Assembly: GCA_000004695.1 (NCBI GenBank)
Contig: CM000154.2
Location: 2,560,001-2,624,000, forward strand
Origin: Dictyostelium discoideum
Taxonomy: Eukaryota
Direction: 5' to 3'
DNA: 64,000 bases
The notes beneath the pieces were generated by a model. The model ran no database searches and was not told where the DNA came from. It saw nothing but the letters and a program-made list of their open reading frames with translations. A program made the position numbers and the translations under genes. Positions 2,170 through 44,589 of this stretch are shown piece by piece (within the stretch, counting starts at the first letter, position 1; every line of letters starts with the position of its first letter).

Positions 2170-2679
2170 TAATTACACTGCAAAATTTTGAGATAAAGTA
2201 TATTCAACATAACGTTTAATATAAGGCATTTGAAAGATATCAAAGATTGAAGGTCTTTTAGTAGGTTGTTTCTCTAGTAATTGATAAACTAAATTTTGTA
2301 AATCTTGAGAATAATTTGGAGAGATTGGTAATGGTTGACCTTGTAAGATTTGAAATATTAATGAGGGCATTTCCTTTGCATCGAATGCATGTTTCAATGT
2401 GATCATTTCATATAGACAACAACCCAATGACCAAATATCTGATTTAAAATCGTATGCTCTACTACCAAAACATTCTGGACTCATATAATATGGTGTACCA
2501 ATCATTGTCTTTGCAAACTCTGATGAATTCAAAACTCTTGATATACCGAAATCACCAATCTTTATAATGTTTTTCTTTGTTAAAAATATATTTTGTGTTT
2601 TTAAATCTCTATGTATAACTTTTTTCTTGTGCATATATAATAATCCTAATGCGATTTGAATAAACCAATCTAATATTTG
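2170..2679 (-). CDS. NIMA-related (NEK-family) Ser/Thr protein kinase, exon 2 (catalytic loop to end of kinase domain)
   Basis: QILDWFIQIALGLLYMHKKKVIHRDLKTQNIFL...DFGISRVL...GTPYYMSPECFGSRAYDFKSDIWSLGCCLYEM...KRPSIFDIF; acceptor ..aaaaatag|CAAATATTA at ~2681/2679. Confidence 0.8.
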
Positions 2680-2797
2680 CTATTTTTTATTTATTTAAAA
2701 AGTAAAAAAAAAAAAGTAAAATTAAATAAATATGTATAATTAATATTAATTTCTCCTTTTAACAAATAAAAATAAAAATAACTTTCAATATACATAC

Positions 2798-3106
2798 ATA
2801 TTCAGAAATGAATTCGTTTTTCTTTTTTTGAAGCGTTGTGAATAAGTCTCCCGATTCACAATAAGCCATAATGATACAAAGGAATTGATTATTTTCAATT
2901 TGAAAAGATTCAAAGTATTCGACAATATTTGGATGTTTTAATTGAGATAATACATTTACTTCGTGTAATGTATCTTTTGTCTTTTCTCTCTCTTTTAAAA
3001 AGATTTTTTTCATTACATATTTTTTTTTATCGATTGTACTTCTTACTAAATAAACATCACCATGCGATCCATTACCAATTTGTTTAATTATATCATATTT
3101 ATCCAT
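2798..3106 (-). CDS. NIMA-related (NEK-family) Ser/Thr protein kinase, exon 1 (Gly-loop, VAIK-like Lys)
   Basis: MDKYDIIKQIGNGSHGDVYLVRSTIDKKKYVMKKI...LHEVNVLSQLKHPNIVEYFESF...YCESGDLF...NEFISEY|gtatgt donor at ~2797. Confidence 0.8.
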
Positions 3107-3725
3107 TCCATTGATTTTATTTATTTTTATATAATTATATAAAAATAGTGTTTATTTATTTATTTATGTTGTTGTTTTTGTTGTTGGTACGTTTATATTT
3201 ATTTTTTTTTTTATTTTAATTGATAGTAGTGTAGATGTTAATGATAGTAGTAGTAGTAGTAGTAATAGTGTATAATTGATAATTGATAATAGATAATTGA
3301 TAGTAGTGGTAGATGTTAATTGATAGTAGTAGTGGTAATAATAGTGGTGGTAGTTGTTTTTATATTACTTTTTTTTTATTTATTGGTGTTTATGTATGTG
3401 TTTGTGTGTGTATATACTTGATTTTTATTATTATTATTATTATAGTTGGTTGTAGATGATATAAAGAAAGTGTAATATTGTTTAATGTGGTGAATTTTTT
3501 ATATACTCTATTTTTTTTTTTTTTTTTTTTTTTAAATAAATATTTATTTTAAATTTTTTTTTTTTTTTTTTTTTTTTTGATGATAAAAGTGTTATTTAAA
3601 TTTTGAAATGGTACAATTGTATTTATTATGCGTGAAAATATTTATGTAATAATATGTATGACTGAGTGCGTGTTGTGTGATTATAAATTGAAAAAAAATA
3701 ATAAAAAAATAAAAAAAAATAATAA

Positions 3726-3761
<36 letters not shown>

Positions 3762-4818
3762 TGTGAGTTATTTAATTGAAGTGTTTGGGGTACTGTTTGT
3801 GATGGGTGTGTATTATTTTTGTTTTTTGTAAATTTAATTTTTAATTTTTTTATATTTTTATTTATTTTTTTTTTTTTTTTTATGTCTGTATCTAACTGTG
3901 ATTGCTATATTGATTGAACTATAAATATAAAAATAAACCAACCCAATGATTAGTGTTATATATTAATGATGCTTTTATTATTTTTTTTTTTTTTTTTTGT
4001 GATATGAGGATCAGTGAAGAGAAAGAAAGAAAAAAAATAAATAAATAAATTTATATAAGTATAAAATATTTGTGTAATTTTAATAATAATAATAATAAAT
4101 ATAATAATAAATGAAATTTTTTTTTTTTTTTTTTTTTTGAAGTTATAAAAAAAAACACAACAACAAATTAAGCATTTAATTTAAAAAAATAAAAAAATAA
4201 AAAAAAAAAAAAAAATAATTGTTCGTATTGACAAATTAATTAAAAAAAATTTTATTTTAAAAAATATTGAAAAAAATTGAAAAAAAATCAATTCTATAAA
4301 AGGTTTGGTTTGATCGGTGAAAAGGAAAGATTTTGTCAATCTATCTTATAATTAAAGATTTTTTTTTTATATATTATAAAATTTTCTTTTAAAAAATATT
4401 TCCTTTTTTTTTTTAAAAAAAATTATTGAAAAAAAAAAAATATATTAAAAATTATTATGGACAAAAAAGGATTATTAGTTTATGTTATTAATAGAATTTA
4501 ATGCGTGTGTGTGTGTGGTTGGCAAAAAAAAAAAAAAAAAAAAAAAACTCTAATAAAAAAAACTCTAATAAAAAAATAATTAGAACAAAACTCCTTTTTT
4601 GTGCACACTTACAATTTAGGAAAATAAAAGACACACAAAAAATGATTTTGTAAAAAAAAAAAAAACCACCCCTTTAAAAATTCAACCTCTAAAAAAAAGA
4701 TCAATTCGACCAAAAATTAGATATATTACGAGATTTTTTTTTTTAAAAATTTTTTTTTTCTTTTTACTTTTTTTATTTTTTTTTATTTTATTTTATTTTA
4801 TTTTTATTTTTATTTTTA

Positions 4819-7702: not shown

Positions 7703-7739
<37 letters not shown>

Positions 7740-7961
7740 GTTGTGTTTCTTTTTCAATTTATTCAAATTATATTATTATTATTATTATTTTTTTTTTTAA
7801 AAAAATAAAGTTAAATCTTCATATAATAGGGTGTGAGATCATATAAAAAAACCAAATGATGAATTATGTTGTTATATCGTTTAACAATTATTATGTACTT
7901 ATAAGGTTAAAAATTACTTTATCAAATTTGAAATAATAATAATAAAAAAATGAATAAAAAA

Positions 7962-25357: not shown

Positions 25358-25445
25358 TATTATGTCAGAGGAAAATTTAGATAACGCAAAAAATCGTGTT
25401 TCGTTTTCAATTAAGTTCAAAAGTGTCCGATACTCATCATAGAAA
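25358..25445 (-). ncRNA. box C/D snoRNA-like gene 1
   Basis: Minus strand reads ..tttctATGATGAgtatcggacac......attttcctCTGAcataat: C box AUGAUGA near the 5' end and D box CUGA near the 3' end. A GC-richer island in AT-rich spacer. Confidence 0.5.
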
Positions 25446-25689
25446 ATTTATACCCCAAACCAACAAATAAAAAAATACAAAGTTAATAAATTATTAAATA
25501 TTTACCAATTAAAATTAATATAAAAAAGGACTACCAAGAATTTGGACTTTGAAAAAAGATTTAACCTGTAATTTCAAACAAAAGCAAAAAAAAAAAAATA
25601 ATAAAAAATAAATTAGTATAAAATTTTATTATTTAATATAAATAATACCATAGTTATTTAAACACAATATTTTAAAAAAATATGATAAA

Positions 25690-25772
25690 ATTATGTCAGA
25701 AGACTGTCGTGAGAAATCAATTGAGTAATCACAGATTTCATAGAGCTGAGTTGAATTACTTCATCATATTAA
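25690..25772 (-). ncRNA. box C/D snoRNA-like gene 2 (paralog of gene 3)
   Basis: Minus: aatATGATGAagtaattcaactcagctctatgaaatctgtgattactcaattgatttctcacgacagtcttCTGAcataatt; C box, D box, internal C'/D'-like ugauua/cuca. Confidence 0.55.
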
Positions 25773-26028
25773 TATTATCAATTTTTTTAAAAATAAGTGT
25801 TTAAATACTCGGTAAAGTATTTTTCAAAATAATTACCTTTTTACATATAATCTCAGAAAGCTTTTTGTACCTAAAGGGAGAGAAAAAAAAAAAGAAAATT
25901 CAAGAGAAAAAACCTAATAAGAAAAAAAAAAAAATATATATTAATTAGCAATTAATTTTTTTTTTTGGAAAAAATAAAGTATAATAATTATAATATCAGC
26001 TTTTATTATTGTTATTATTTTTATTTAT

Positions 26029-26105
26029 AATGTCAGAAGACTGTCGTGAGAAATCAAATTGAGTAATCACAGATTTCATAGAGCTGAGTTTGAATACTTC
26101 ATCAT

Positions 26106-26111
<6 letters not shown>
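26029..26111 (-). ncRNA. box C/D snoRNA-like gene 3 (near-identical to gene 2)
   Basis: Same sequence as 25690-25772 with 3 small differences; ~340 bp tandem spacing. Confidence 0.55.
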
Positions 26112-26147
<36 letters not shown>

Positions 26148-26374
26148 TGAACTGATAATAAAATATTATAGATAATACTTACAAAAATAGTTTTTGTTGC
26201 TGTGGAAAAAAAAAGTGAATAGAAAAATATAAAAAAAAAATTATTTAAAAAGCCGAAAAAGAAAAAAAAATGAAAAAAAAAAAAAATATTTTTTACGGAA
26301 AATGATTTTTAAGAAAAAAAAAACAACGTTATGATTATTTTAATTTTATTTTTATTTTCATTTTTACATGTTAG

Positions 26375-26426
<52 letters not shown>

Positions 26427-26444
26427 AATAATAAATAAATAAAC

Positions 26445-26482
<38 letters not shown>

Positions 26483-26653
26483 AATAATATTTTAAAAAAA
26501 TTCCTAAAAAAAAAATTAATAATAATAAGAAGTATTCACATTTATTTTTATTTATTTTTTTAATATGATTATTTCAATGTTTGATTATTTATTACTTCTT
26601 TTTTATTTTTATATTATTATTATTTTTATTTATTTATTTAATTTATTTTATTT

Positions 26654-27877
26654 TTATTTATTTTTATTTATAAATTTATTTAAAATTAAAGAAGGATCAA
26701 TTGAAGCACCAGGTTTTAAAAAATTTTGTTGATAAAATTGACCTTTTTCAAGATTTAATTGTTTTCCAGAATCAAAATGATTGATCCAAATACGTTTACT
26801 ATAATCTTTTGCCAAAAGGTAACTATAATAAGAAGCGCCATAATAAAAGAGATGATTAAAAGAGGTTAAAAAGAAATTTGAAACTGTACCATGAATACCA
26901 ATTTGTTGTTGATGTAAAGTACTTAAGATTTGAGCAGGTGACATATTTGTATCACCAATATTGGTACTTGTATTTTTATCAGTTTCTACGGTATGTAATT
27001 TTAAATCCAAGAAAGCCAATGAAATTTGTTCTTGAGTTTCAATACCTTGAAATAAATTTCTAGTCTTTTTTAAATTTGTTACCATTTCATTCGATATTGG
27101 TTTACCCATTGAATTAATTGCAAATTGTTGAAGTAAATCTTGATTCCAACTGAAATTCTCCATCAATGTACTTGGTATCTCTATGAAATCAGTAGGACCT
27201 CTTGTACCACACAAATGTTGAAAATTACAACGTGACATCAAAGTATGCAACGCATGGCCAAATTCATGAAACAACGTCTCTACATCTGAATGTTGTAATT
27301 TTGATTTCAATGGTTCATTAAAATTATTTTGAGTAAATGAACATGTAATTGAACATTTTGGTAAATTATATTCATCATTATATTCATCATCATCATCATC
27401 CTCATTTTTTAAATTATTTTTTAAATTATTTTTTAAAATTTTAAATTTTTTATAACCTAAACCAATTGGATGATTTACACAACCAGTTGCTTTATCTTGT
27501 CTTTCCCATGGATCTAAATACATTATACCTAATATTGTTTTATTTTCATCATTTCTTAATAAATTAAACTTTATAACTGATTTATCCCATGATTCACCAT
27601 TATTCATTGGTACAATTTTTAATTGTGAATTAAATAATTTATTAACAATTATATTTAAACCATTTAAAACATTTTCCAATGTGAAATATTGTGAAAGTTC
27701 TTCTTTATCTAATGAATGACTTTTATAAAATTCTTTTGACATTTGATTCTTATAAAATGGTAAATCAAAACTAAATATTTTATCATTATTTGGATTATTT
27801 GGTTCCATTCTTTTTTTAATTTCTATTAATTTATTTAATTCTTCATCTGATTTTTCTTTATATTCTTTTGATAAATC
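26654..27877 (-). CDS. M3-family zinc metallopeptidase (mitochondrial intermediate peptidase-like), exon 2
   Basis: Acceptor tatttatttag|GATTTATC in frame; HEFGHALH zinc-binding motif; ..LFHEFGHALHTLMSRCNFQHLCGTRGPTDFIEIPS.. Confidence 0.75.
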   Translation of the reverse strand, partial: DLSKEYKEKSDEELNKLIEIKKRMEPNNPNNDKIFSFDLPFYKNQMSKEFYKSHSLDKEELSQYFTLENVLNGLNIIVNKLFNSQLKIVPMNNGESWDKSVIKFNLLRNDENKTILGIMYLDPWERQDKATGCVNHPIGLGYKKFKILKNNLKNNLKNEDDDDDEYNDEYNLPKCSITCSFTQNNFNEPLKSKLQHSDVETLFHEFGHALHTLMSRCNFQHLCGTRGPTDFIEIPSTLMENFSWNQDLLQQFAINSMGKPISNEMVTNLKKTRNLFQGIETQEQISLAFLDLKLHTVETDKNTSTNIGDTNMSPAQILSTLHQQQIGIHGTVSNFFLTSFNHLFYYGASYYSYLLAKDYSKRIWINHFDSGKQLNLEKGQFYQQNFLKPGASIDPSLILNKFINKNK

Positions 27878-28044
27878 CTAAATAAATATAAATAAAAAAA
27901 TTATAATAATTTTTAATATATATATAAAAATAAATAAAAATAATAAAAAAAAAATAATAATAATAAAAATAAATATTAAAATATAAAATAATAAAATAAA
28001 TTATTATAATAATAATAAATAATAATAGTAAAAATAATAAATAT

Positions 28045-28083
<39 letters not shown>

Positions 28084-28121
28084 AATAATTGAAAAAAACA
28101 TACAAATAAATAATTATTTAC

Positions 28122-29093
28122 TTGAGTTGGAGTTTTTAATAATTTATTTTTTAATTCATAAAATGAATAATTTTCACAACCTAAAGTTTTTGCTAATTGA
28201 TAACGTTTTGAAATTAATTGAACTAAATGATTTAATACACTATCATAACAATTTGAAATGGATTGTAGTCTGTGAACTGAATATCTAATGTTTGGATCGG
28301 GTATATATTTTAAGATACCAGCCACTAGATAATCGGTTGGTATGAATGGTACATTACCATCTGGTTTCTTTGGAGGTAATTGTTGAAGGTATTTCAGAGG
28401 TAAATGACCAACCAATGAGGAGTAGGGAATATTTAATGTGACATTGGGAGGATGTTTATAAGAGTTTAAAGATTGTTCGATAAACATTGAACCTTGAGCA
28501 AATATCTCGTCTTTTAATTTCATAATTTCGTATTTCTCTTTTGGTTTCAAATTGATGCCATTCACTTCAGACTCTTTGATCATTTCATTGAGAAATAGTT
28601 GATGATCGTTTGGCAATTGGTGATAGTGTTTGTGGTCCCTGATTACCAATAGTAGTTGATAGAGATCAGAGTTTGCATTTAGTCTATTGACAGTGTCACT
28701 CATCTTTAGGAATGCTTTATGTGACTCAATTTTATGTGGTCCGTAGGGAATGACATTCATTACGAATTGTGCAGGATCCATAAGGTCACATAATTCTCTA
28801 GATATCCCATCAATATAATATAATGTCTCTTTTAATTGCTCAATGGTTGATTCTTGATTGATTTTAATTGGTATTATATGATCCCTAATTTCATTAATCT
28901 TTTCATTCTTTTTATGAAATAAATCCTCCCATCCTTTTGGTGTCTTTAATTCTTTAATACCTAATAATCCCACATTTTCATTACTACTATTATTAGTTGA
29001 TGTTATTAATCTAATTGAATTATTTTTATTATTAATTGATTTAAATAATACATTGCTATATTTTATTAAATTTTTATTTGTAAAAGATATCAT
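28122..29093 (-). CDS. M3-family zinc metallopeptidase (mitochondrial intermediate peptidase-like), exon 1
   Basis: MISFTNKNLIKYSNVLFKSINNK.. presequence-like N-terminus; ..KLLKTPTQ|gtaaat donor; ORF read-through after that is a 244-nt AT-rich intron. Confidence 0.7.
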
Positions 29094-33623: not shown

Positions 33624-33696
33624 CACCCATTGTGGGTCTCGATCCCACGACCTGCAGCTTAGAAGGCTGCCGCAATTCCAACTTTGCTAAACGGGC
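33624..33696 (-). tRNA. tRNA-Arg(UCU): tRNA-Arg (anticodon UCU)
   Basis: Minus: GCCCGTT-TA-GCAA-AGTTGGAA-TTGC-G-GCAGC-CTTCTAA-GCTGC-AGGTC-GTGGG-ATCGAGA-CCCAC-AATGGGT-G. 7-bp acceptor stem (2 G-U pairs), D and T stems perfect, U33, anticodon TCT, A37; 73 nt. Confidence 0.8.
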
Positions 33697-39607: not shown

Positions 39608-39909
39608 AGAAAAAAAAGCAAATAATTAAATGAGAAAAAAAAAAAAAACGATAATAAAATTATAAAAAAAAAACGATAATTAAATTATAAAAAAAGTAAA
39701 TAATAAAATTAAAAAAAAATGAAATAATAATAAAATGAGAAAAACCGATAATTTTTTTTATTTGGTAAATATTAATCAAAATCATATTTTATTGTTGTTT
39801 TAGTTTTTTTTTAAAGAATAAAATACCTGTTAAAATGAAATAGAAAAATTAGTAATCAATTTATATGTATTTTTTTTTAGTTTTTTTTTAAAAAAAACAC
39901 CATTTTATT

Positions 39910-40005
39910 GTTTTGGATCAGAGTTTTTGGCTTAATTAAAAATTAAATCTTATCTTGTCAATCACAGTCGTGTCGGACGGGGAAAGAAATCATCATCTAA
40001 ACAAT
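39910..40005 (-). ncRNA. box C/D snoRNA-like gene 4
   Basis: Minus: tGTTTag-ATGATGA-tttctttccccgtccgacacgactgtgattgacaag.....aaaactCTGA-tccAAAACa. C and D boxes plus a 4-5 bp terminal stem (GTTT/AAAC); GC-rich island in spacer. Confidence 0.45.
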
Positions 40006-40244
40006 AAAATAGTTTCTTTTTTAAAAAGTGTTTGAAACTTACAAGAAAAAGCAAAAGAAAGGACCAAGAATTGAAAGAACACCTCAAAGATAATAAAAGA
40101 AACTGAAAAAAAGACTCAAAGTAACCTAAATAAATCTAGAAAATTAATAAACAAAATTATATTAATATATTACTTTTATATTTTTTTAAATAAACAACCC
40201 AGTTAAATAATATAATAATGGGTATAAAATGTATTTATTAATGT

Positions 40245-40332
40245 TGTATGGTCAGAAGCAAAACTGGCGTGTCTTGTAAATCCGAATCATCATTAAGATT
40301 GCAGACTGGGGCGGTTGTCAATCATCATTCCA
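40245..40332 (-). ncRNA. box C/D snoRNA-like gene 5
   Basis: Minus: ggaATGATGAttgacaaccgccccagtctgcaatcttaATGATGAttcggatttacaagacacgccagttttgcttCTGAcca. C and C' (both AUGAUGA), terminal D box, GG/CC terminal pairing. Confidence 0.5.
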
Positions 40333-40671
40333 AAAACAAAAAAAATAAATATACACATAAATAATAATACTATTTATAACTTACAATTTGTTGTTAGTTG
40401 TGAATGAAATATTTTTTTTTTTTTTTTTTCTTTTTGTTGAAAGGAAAAAAAAAAAAAAAAAACTTTGAAAAAAAAAAAAATAAAAAAAAAAAGTAAAAAA
40501 TAAAAAAAAAAAAAATCACGAAAAAAGAACGTTATTCACGCATATTGTTTTTTTTTTTTTATTTTAATTTTTTTAATTTTTTTTATTTTTATTATTACTT
40601 TTTTTTTTTACTAAAAATAAATTTATTTTTATTTTTATCTATTTTTATTTTTATTTCTATTTTTTTACAAT

Positions 40672-44589
<3,918 letters not shown>

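Follow-up and report, generated by a model that had tools for sequence, protein, structure and literature searches.

The window analysed in this work, a stretch of 64,000 nucleotides from chromosome 5 of Dictyostelium discoideum (GenBank contig CM000154.2, positions 2,560,001 to 2,624,000), contains two islands that an earlier note, made from the sequence alone, had put forward as minus-strand candidates for genes of box C/D snoRNAs (small nucleolar RNAs). These islands are the already published D. discoideum genes DdR-13 (CD13) and DdR-2 (CD2), guides of ribose methylation in 26S rRNA. CD13 occupies positions 40248-40331 and CD2 positions 39916-39999; as do, unless stated otherwise, the window features described in the following, both lie on the minus strand. 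Each gene comprises 84 nt and is identified by Rfam, by published coordinates and by matches of published oligonucleotides. With a GC content of 44% (CD13) and 34.5% (CD2) they stand out from the window mean of 22%, just as the description of the islands as GC-rich had implied. Upon an Rfam scan of the window at gathering thresholds, five Dictyostelium box C/D snoRNAs and one tRNA were found. DdR13 (RF01563) matches 40252-40331 with 104.1 bits (gathering threshold 65) over positions 1-80 of the 80 model positions, DdR2 (RF01569) matches 39917-39999 with 110.1 bits (gathering threshold 80) over positions 1-83 of 83, and the window copies are almost identical to the consensus of their respective Rfam families.

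The published record agrees with this assignment. Table S5 of Diesend et al. (2022; PMC8817022) places CD13 on chr5 at 2600248-2600331 and CD2 at 2599916-2599999, both on the minus strand, and for CD2, CD13, CD5, CD23 and CD16 the coordinates of this table equal the window coordinates plus 2,560,000. Furthermore, the oligonucleotides with which primer extension of CD2 and CD13 was carried out match the reverse complement of the window sequence exactly. As the same study explains, the RNAs called DdR-x by Aspegren et al. (2004) now bear the name CDx, and the first cloning of DdR-13 and DdR-2 as well as the northern blots are credited to that earlier work (Aspegren et al., 2004, as cited in PMC8817022). 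The full-length Rfam matches and the published coordinates thus bear out the two minus-strand candidates. Expression, which the earlier note had treated as decisive together with guide complementarity to rRNA, has been reported for CD13 and CD2 on the basis of RNA sequencing and primer extension, and methylation of the predicted 26S sites on that of RiboMeth-seq (PMC8817022). We found nothing that contradicts the identity or the guide function of CD13 and CD2, and it is with great confidence that we regard the known DdR-13 and DdR-2 genes, complemented by their guide roles and by the proposed family, precursor, stem and host-transcript parts, as the best explanation of the locus overall. New in comparison with the literature searched are a proposed link of CD2 to the SNORD12 family, a conserved stem in the CD2 precursor and a putative host-intron layout.

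Orthologous loci from a second D. discoideum strain, D. citrinum, D. dimigraforme and D. firmibasis were identified via the neighbouring gene for a protein of 366 amino acids. DdR13 is followed by DdR2 in every orthologous spacer, in the same order, with the same spacing and on the strand opposite to the 366-aa gene. The guides and boxes of CD13 and CD2 form near-invariant islands, whereas the flanks diverge. In CD13, the C box AUGAUGA (40322-40328) and the D box CUGA (40252-40255) are invariant in five orthologues, the second AUGAUGA represents an equally invariant C' box (40287-40293) and the D' box reads CUGC (40301-40304). CD2 has a C box AUGAUGA (39990-39996) and a D box CUGA (39918-39921), again invariant in five orthologues, and a D' box CCGA (39973-39976). 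The latter is followed at 39958-39972 by the linker CACGACUG and the C' box UGAUUGA, an element that is invariant except for one linker position. All boxes read from the letters in the earlier note, that is C, C' and D in CD13 and C and D in CD2, are therefore present on the minus strand, and internal D' and C' boxes, degenerate as usual, were found in both RNAs.

Seven matches to the pattern ATGATGA-N50-75-CTGA are present in the window, compared with an expectation of 0.61, and none of 100 shuffled sequences reached this number. Five of the seven are the Rfam-confirmed snoRNAs. The other two (42164-42245 and 63067-63142) are AT-rich, close in number to the chance expectation of about 0.6 and without any Rfam match; the former is located antisense within an open reading frame (ORF) of 1305 codons. 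We treat these two as chance occurrences rather than as snoRNAs. They do illustrate that the bare pattern can arise randomly, so that CD13 and CD2 themselves could be looked upon as chance assemblies of box-like motifs or as functionless pseudogenes. This idea is refuted by the full-length covariance-model matches, by published expression and target methylation (PMC8817022) and by the near-invariance of both islands inside diverged spacers, and its probability appears negligible to us.

Two further features to which attention had been drawn proved to be of lesser weight. The motif ttgtcaatca, TGATTGACAA on the minus strand, is indeed shared by both islands (39955-39964 and 40315-40324) and occurs at no third site in the window, but two or more copies were obtained in 12 of 100 shuffled sequences. 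The DdR2 copy corresponds to the C' box UGAUUGA with an adjoining CAA and does not vary among orthologues, whereas in DdR13 it is made up of the end of the C box and a stretch, different in every species, that reads UUGACAA, UCAACAA, UUAACAA or UACACUA in the orthologues. Since the 10-mer is neither significant nor conserved in DdR13 orthologues, we consider it coincidental and reject it as a functional element. Likewise, the terminal GG/CC pairing of CD13 does exist but is not conserved, CC being changed to CA even in the second D. discoideum strain. The terminal stems of the mature RNAs comprise merely 2-3 bp, to which the flanks of CD13 add a short GUUGU/ACAAC stem. This stem is not significant, and an external stem is not assumed for CD13.

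Within a box C/D small nucleolar ribonucleoprotein (snoRNP) the RNA pairs with 26S pre-rRNA, and the 2'-O-methyl group is placed on the nucleotide that faces position 5 of the guide, counted upstream from box D or D'. When duplexes were recomputed from the window sequence and the rRNA segments printed in the supplement of PMC8817022, pairings of 14, 10 and 13 bp resulted, and the complementarity to rRNA named in the earlier note is consequently present for both RNAs. The D guide of CD13, ACGCCAGUUUUGCUU (40256-40270), is invariant in five orthologues and forms the 14-bp duplex, including one G-U pair, with A1370 opposite position 5. Its D' guide ACCGCCCCAGU (40305-40315) pairs over 10 bp with the P-loop, G2952 being opposite position 5. 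The D' guide of CD2, UUUCUUUCCCCGU (39977-39989), is invariant in the orthologues and forms the 13-bp duplex with G2661 opposite position 5. For this duplex, one G that was dropped during text extraction from the PDF had to be restored in the printed rRNA segment. The restoration is justified because GCGGGGAAAGAAGA-CC-CUGUUGAGCUUGACU then yields G2661 + 26 = U2687, in agreement with Table 1 of PMC8817022. In that table, RiboMeth-seq signals at Am1370, Am1463 and Gm2952 are assigned to CD13, and Gm2661 is assigned to CD2 and CD3, while Table S5 assigns CD2 Gm2661 alone; CD9 shares Am1370 and Am1463 with CD13 (PMC8817022). As part of a snoRNP, CD13, according to the published assignments, directs the modification of G2952 via its D' guide and that of A1370 and, more weakly, A1463 via its D guide, and CD2 directs that of G2661 in domain V of 26S rRNA via its D' guide.

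Two of the sites addressed by CD13 have counterparts in yeast and human. G2952 is the P-loop residue that touches the CCA end of the P-site tRNA; Gm2952 is equivalent to yeast Gm2619 and human Gm4166, and Am1370 to yeast Am1133 and human Am1858 (PMC8817022). The 5' guide and D' box of CD13 are identical to the SNORD31 consensus ACCGCCCCAGUCUG, and the 3' guide matches the U38-type guide GCCAGUUyUGCUUCUGA and resembles that of plant snoZ223. These likenesses are in line with Table 1 of PMC8817022, where U31/snR67 and U38/snR61 are named for the orthologous sites. Judged from its guides, CD13 would work like both SNORD31 and SNORD38/snoZ223, yet it is a model-verified member of neither family. 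The DdR13 orthologue of D. firmibasis (7720-7798 in its locus, L003; Rfam 76.7 bits) has lost the P-loop D' guide, carrying CCG-AUAAGU instead of CCGCCCCAGU, while its D guide is intact. The P-loop Gm of this species is presumably guided by another snoRNA, perhaps an orthologue of CD9.

For CD2, comparison with other eukaryotes leads to a more specific proposal. According to the literature, human SNORD12/B/C, Schizosaccharomyces pombe snR107 and Saccharomyces cerevisiae snR190 are orthologues. The first antisense element of these RNAs selects G3878 in man, equivalent to G2483 in S. pombe and G2395 in S. cerevisiae, and the second, located upstream of box D, pairs with domain I of 25S rRNA without causing methylation; snR190 is a purely folding chaperone. 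From the offsets in Table 1 of PMC8817022 (Dictyostelium U2687 = S. cerevisiae U2421 = human U3904) it follows that Dictyostelium G2661 is equivalent to S. cerevisiae G2395 and human G3878. The pairing with H73 in domain V that is typical of the family is found in CD2 as well, UUUCUUUCCCCGU pairing with GCGGGGAAAGAAGA and thereby selecting the equivalent G. When aligned with SNORD12 in Rfam, DdR2 matches over the D' guide and, next to it, the CGAC..UG linker, that is in the 5' half only; with plant snoZ103 the alignment covers D' guide, linker and D guide. Both alignments are below the Rfam threshold. Guide, linker and position thus suggest that CD2 is very probably the Dictyostelium, and hence amoebozoan, counterpart of SNORD12/snR107/snR190. 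Table 1 of PMC8817022 gives neither a human nor a plant counterpart for Gm2661, though the site equals human 28S Gm3878 (SNORD12) and S. pombe Gm2483 (snR107).

Upstream of its D box, CD2 carries an additional antisense element, UUAAGCCAAAAACU (39922-39935), which is without a published rRNA target, is invariant in all five orthologues and can be aligned with the snoZ103 3' guide from plants. By analogy, it may represent the second, non-methylating pairing element of the family. The complement of this D guide was present in none of 80 non-dictyostelid large subunit (LSU) rDNAs obtained by a metagenome scan with a widespread published 21-mer, and the domain I stretch was found to vary by lineage among these environmental LSU rDNAs.

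The GUUU/AAAC pairing pointed out in the earlier note for CD2 is real and forms the inner end of a much larger structure. CD2 is precisely enclosed by the arms of a 29-nt inverted repeat, the longest in the region, with 90% complementarity (5' arm at 39999-40027, 3' arm at 39885-39913), that can form a stem of about 28 bp; the 3' arm contains the invariant sequence TAAAATGGT at 39907-39899. The window precursor of CD2 folds with z-scores of -4.2 and -4.95, and none of 200 shuffled sequences was as stable. As the orthologues shift register, the stem was assessed by folds of the individual sequences instead of a covariation count in a fixed register. In this way, an equivalent stem of 19-28 bp was found in the four orthologous precursors, with z-scores of -2.7 to -3.5 and 0-2 of 200 shuffled sequences reaching the same stability, and it persists despite substitutions and register shifts. 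Complementary snoRNA flanks have been mentioned before as 'data not shown' (PMC8817022). We propose that the conserved stem of about 28 bp would present CD2 for snoRNP assembly and exonucleolytic trimming.

A duplex of this length could also serve as an RNase III substrate, and this touches upon the published view of the locus. It takes the two genes as one bicistronic unit of intergenic location that is transcribed by RNA polymerase II, cleaved between its snoRNAs by an RNase III-type endonuclease as in yeast and plants and trimmed by exonucleases, without any splicing. All but one of the Dictyostelium C/D snoRNA genes are described as intergenic, either mono- or polycistronic, and evidence from reverse transcription PCR (RT-PCR) is cited for bicistronic transcripts (PMC8817022). 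On the other hand, knockout of drnB leaves snoRNA abundance and methylation unchanged (PMC8817022), and precursors detected by RT-PCR are equally compatible with an unspliced host pre-RNA. A single precursor is common to both interpretations: CD13 and CD2 share a strand and are separated by 248 nt, and Aspegren et al. (2004, as reported in PMC8817022) demonstrated a primary transcript for all but one of the original four bicistrons. By elimination among the four, CD13-CD2 belongs to those with a shown primary transcript, and both RNAs would be made from one precursor.

The sequences surrounding the two genes suggest that this precursor is spliced and that CD13 and CD2 are intronic residents of a host gene that is non-coding and has not been annotated. 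A putative 5' splice site GTAAGT (40379-40384) precedes the mature 5' end of CD13 by 53 nt. Downstream of the snoRNA follow a putative branch site TATTAAT (40161-40167), which reads TACTAAT or TATTAAC in the orthologues, and a putative 3' splice site CTAG/ with its AG at 40136-40137 (the slash marks the predicted junction). An alternative TTTAG/ ends at 40126, and the AG is kept in each orthologue. The putative non-coding exon 2 (40043-40135) measures 93 nt, is pyrimidine-rich and lacks ATG; in the orthologues it comprises 58-104 nt and is barely alignable. A second putative 5' splice site GTAAGT (40037-40042) is situated 43 nt upstream of the mature 5' end of CD2, followed on the other side of this gene by a putative branch site TACTAAT (39848-39854), present in five of five orthologues, and a putative 3' splice site AACAG/GT with its AG at 39827-39828. 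In the orthologues, AG/GT is found 20-30 nt past TACTAAT. Finally, a putative poly(A) signal AATAAA is present on the snoRNA strand at 39788-39793 within the conserved block AATAAAATATGATTT. The host gene would accordingly extend from upstream of 40385 to about 39770, with introns at 40384-40136 and 40042-39827, and its transcript would probably be a spliced and polyadenylated non-coding RNA with one snoRNA per intron. The longest ORF starting with ATG comprises 4-5 codons in all five spliced models.

Conservation extends to these putative signals. The octamer TGTAAGTT precedes both snoRNAs (40385-40378 and 40043-40036) and is kept in all five genomes. Outside the snoRNAs, GTAAGTTA at the CD13 donor ranks among the four longest blocks without any variation, and several of the longest blocks of this kind are splice-like signals, namely GTAAGTTA, TAATTGGTAAATAT and CAGAGTT. 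In D. discoideum, a TATA-like sequence, TATAAATA, is found some 45 nt upstream of CD13 and would fit a promoter of the published bicistronic unit. It is, however, not kept in the orthologues, in contrast to GTAAGTTA, which overlaps it and does not vary, and we do not regard it as the CD13 promoter. A DUSE-like ACCCA between the genes was set aside as a promoter of CD2; about 220 nt separate it from this gene, its spelling differs among species and it lies inside the putative intron.

An independent replicate of this donor/branch/acceptor grammar appears to be provided by a second snoRNA cluster in the window, CD16-CD23-CD5 (25362-26108), which is recognised in Rfam as DdR16 twice and then DdR5. 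Here, the donor-like sequences GTAAGY, AG/GTAATTAT and TTG/GTAAATAT are located 62-74 nt upstream of the three snoRNAs in four species. In the same species, CTAAT, ATAYTAAY and TAYTAAYATTTT follow downstream of the respective genes, each of them succeeded by YAG; the segments between the signals are not conserved, and a conserved AATAAA is present at the end of the cluster. CD16 and CD23 are near-identical paralogues with the same D guide UUUCUCACGACAGUCUU, and the duplex with 26S Cm3292 has been published for CD23 alone.

Considering both clusters, donor, branch and acceptor signals on the strand of the snoRNA, in the right order and with one snoRNA per putative intron, are found for five of the five window snoRNAs and are conserved in four to five genomes, while the joint layout is met at only 2% of random window positions. 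GTAAGT occurs twelve times on both strands of the window (128 kb of sequence), and for three of these hexamers a snoRNA follows at a distance of 43-74 nt; among the rest, the majority serve as donors in plausible coding introns that follow the same YTAAY...TAG grammar. Both the regular occurrence of the complete layout and the placement of the hexamers speak against a bicistronic unit that is processed without splicing, which we therefore rate as a possible but rather doubtful alternative. The predicted snoRNA introns measure 216-271 nt, with the 3' end of the snoRNA 59-86 nt in front of the branch-like A, and may be described as typical Dictyostelium introns plus one snoRNA. The genes in the clusters have been called 'equally spaced' (PMC8817022). 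A description of Dictyostelium snoRNA host genes was not found in the literature searched.

It could also be argued that each snoRNA is an independent gene and that TGTAAGTT is not a splice site at all but a snoRNA-specific promoter element, given that the same octamer is found ahead of both genes and conserved in five genomes. We consider this improbable. The distance between octamer and snoRNA varies from 43 to 91 nt among genes and species (GTAAGT to C box: 44-91 nt across the orthologues of both genes, 46-90 nt for those of CD2), the second cluster reads AG/GTAATTAT and TTG/GTAAATAT, which are variants of a splice donor and differ from the octamer, and bicistronic transcripts have been reported (PMC8817022). 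Moreover, a promoter element leaves unexplained why every snoRNA is followed by a conserved branch-like motif and AG and why a single AATAAA is present at the end of each cluster.

Taken together, we favour, if only by a little over even chance, an interpretation in which Dictyostelium C/D snoRNA clusters are spliced and polyadenylated host genes of the UHG/GAS5/ZFAS1 type with one snoRNA per intron and in which CD2 is an orthologue of the chaperone-guides SNORD12/snR107/snR190, its D-side element pairing with 26S rRNA without methylating it. Several points weigh against parts of this picture. The score of CD2 with the SNORD12 model (RF00581) is 17.9-18.8 bits and fails the gathering threshold of 43, and that with snoZ103, 23.6 bits, fails the threshold of 44. 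Because the Rfam scores are sub-threshold, the assignment of CD2 is based on likeness of guide and linker and on positional equivalence, and CD2 is referred to as a likely functional counterpart or orthologue instead of a model-verified member of the SNORD12 family. CD13 is likewise below gathering with 24.7 bits for SNORD31 (threshold 40) and 25.4 bits for SNORD38/snoZ223 (threshold 45), and its D guide offers A1463 only a weak pairing, an 8-bp run with two G-U pairs and the A opposite position 5. The host introns, in turn, are deduced from motifs and conservation, whereas the published description is 'intergenic, bi-cistronic' (PMC8817022).

Some observations concern the surroundings of the snoRNA genes. 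A strongly conserved AT-rich block of about 108 nt (40140-40247) directly downstream of CD13 is near-identical across orthologues, much more so than the remainder of the spacer, and contains the invariant sequence TATTTAACTGGGTT and an ACCC...GGGT hairpin with a loop that is affected by a deletion in D. firmibasis. We reject the idea that the block is a structured RNA: the RNAalifold consensus amounts to just -3.0 kcal/mol, most of the pairs are without any variation, and 3 of 26 are changed on both sides. A tRNA gene (33624-33696, Rfam 59.2 bits) is kept in the orthologous loci. In D. citrinum (2181-4645 of locus L005, compared with 25362-29093 of the window), a block consisting of a Peptidase_M3 gene and CD16/CD23/CD5 is inverted relative to the 366-aa gene, from which it is separated by about 5.4 kb as opposed to about 12 kb in D. 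discoideum. A search for further orthologous loci via this Peptidase_M3 neighbour returned Heterostelium album alone, and the locus of this organism was without a snoRNA match.

For CD13 and CD2 themselves little is at stake. Cloning of the RNAs dates from 2004 and the assignment of their functions from 2022, and their detection here is a rediscovery, albeit one in which real C/D snoRNAs were recognised from raw sequence. The proposals on host introns, family and stem would be of modest importance if confirmed. Should the clusters be hosted by introns, the published contrast between 'intergenic' snoRNA genes in Dictyostelium, yeasts and plants and 'intronic' ones in animals would need revision, and the host-gene design with one snoRNA per intron would reach beyond animals and fungi into an amoebozoan. 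If CD2 belongs to the SNORD12/snR190 family, Gm2661 would be a conserved modification and not a Dictyostelium-specific one, and a chaperone-type second pairing would be predicted, for which a tractable organism is available as a test system.

In comparison with known systems, the identity of the two genes is straightforward: Rfam families RF01563 and RF01569 and CD13 and CD2 of Diesend et al. (2022) agree with the window in locus, sequence and strand, and no difference exists, as the window is the reference sequence. The 5' guide of CD13 directs the P-loop Gm as do SNORD31 (U31) and snR67, and the 3' guide directs the H39 Am as do SNORD38 (U38), snR61 and snoZ223. Whereas the two guides are carried by separate snoRNAs in yeast and human, CD13 joins both in one RNA. 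CD2 shares with SNORD12, snR107 and snR190, and probably with snoZ103, a D' guide that addresses the equivalent G by pairing with GCGGGGAAAGAAGA, a 25S/28S sequence of universal conservation. The CGAC..UG linker past box D' is shared with SNORD12 and snoZ103, and CD2 resembles SNORD12, snR107 and snR190 in having another antisense element that is conserved and lies upstream of box D. CD2 differs from snR190 in that the Dictyostelium site is methylated. SNORD12 resides in ZFAS1 and snR107 in mamRNA, and CD2 may likewise be intron-encoded in a non-coding RNA. In contrast to UHG, GAS5 and ZFAS1, the Dictyostelium clusters have been published as intergenic polycistrons, and their putative host-gene character is deduced from sequence. 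The proposed layout nevertheless resembles that of UHG, GAS5 and ZFAS1 in mammals and of Uhg in Drosophila, each snoRNA being bordered by a donor-like site on one side and by a branch-like motif plus AG on the other. As in hosts of the UHG/GAS5/ZFAS1 type, the putative exons are short, not conserved and free of ORFs, and a flanking stem may stand in for the missing terminal stem.

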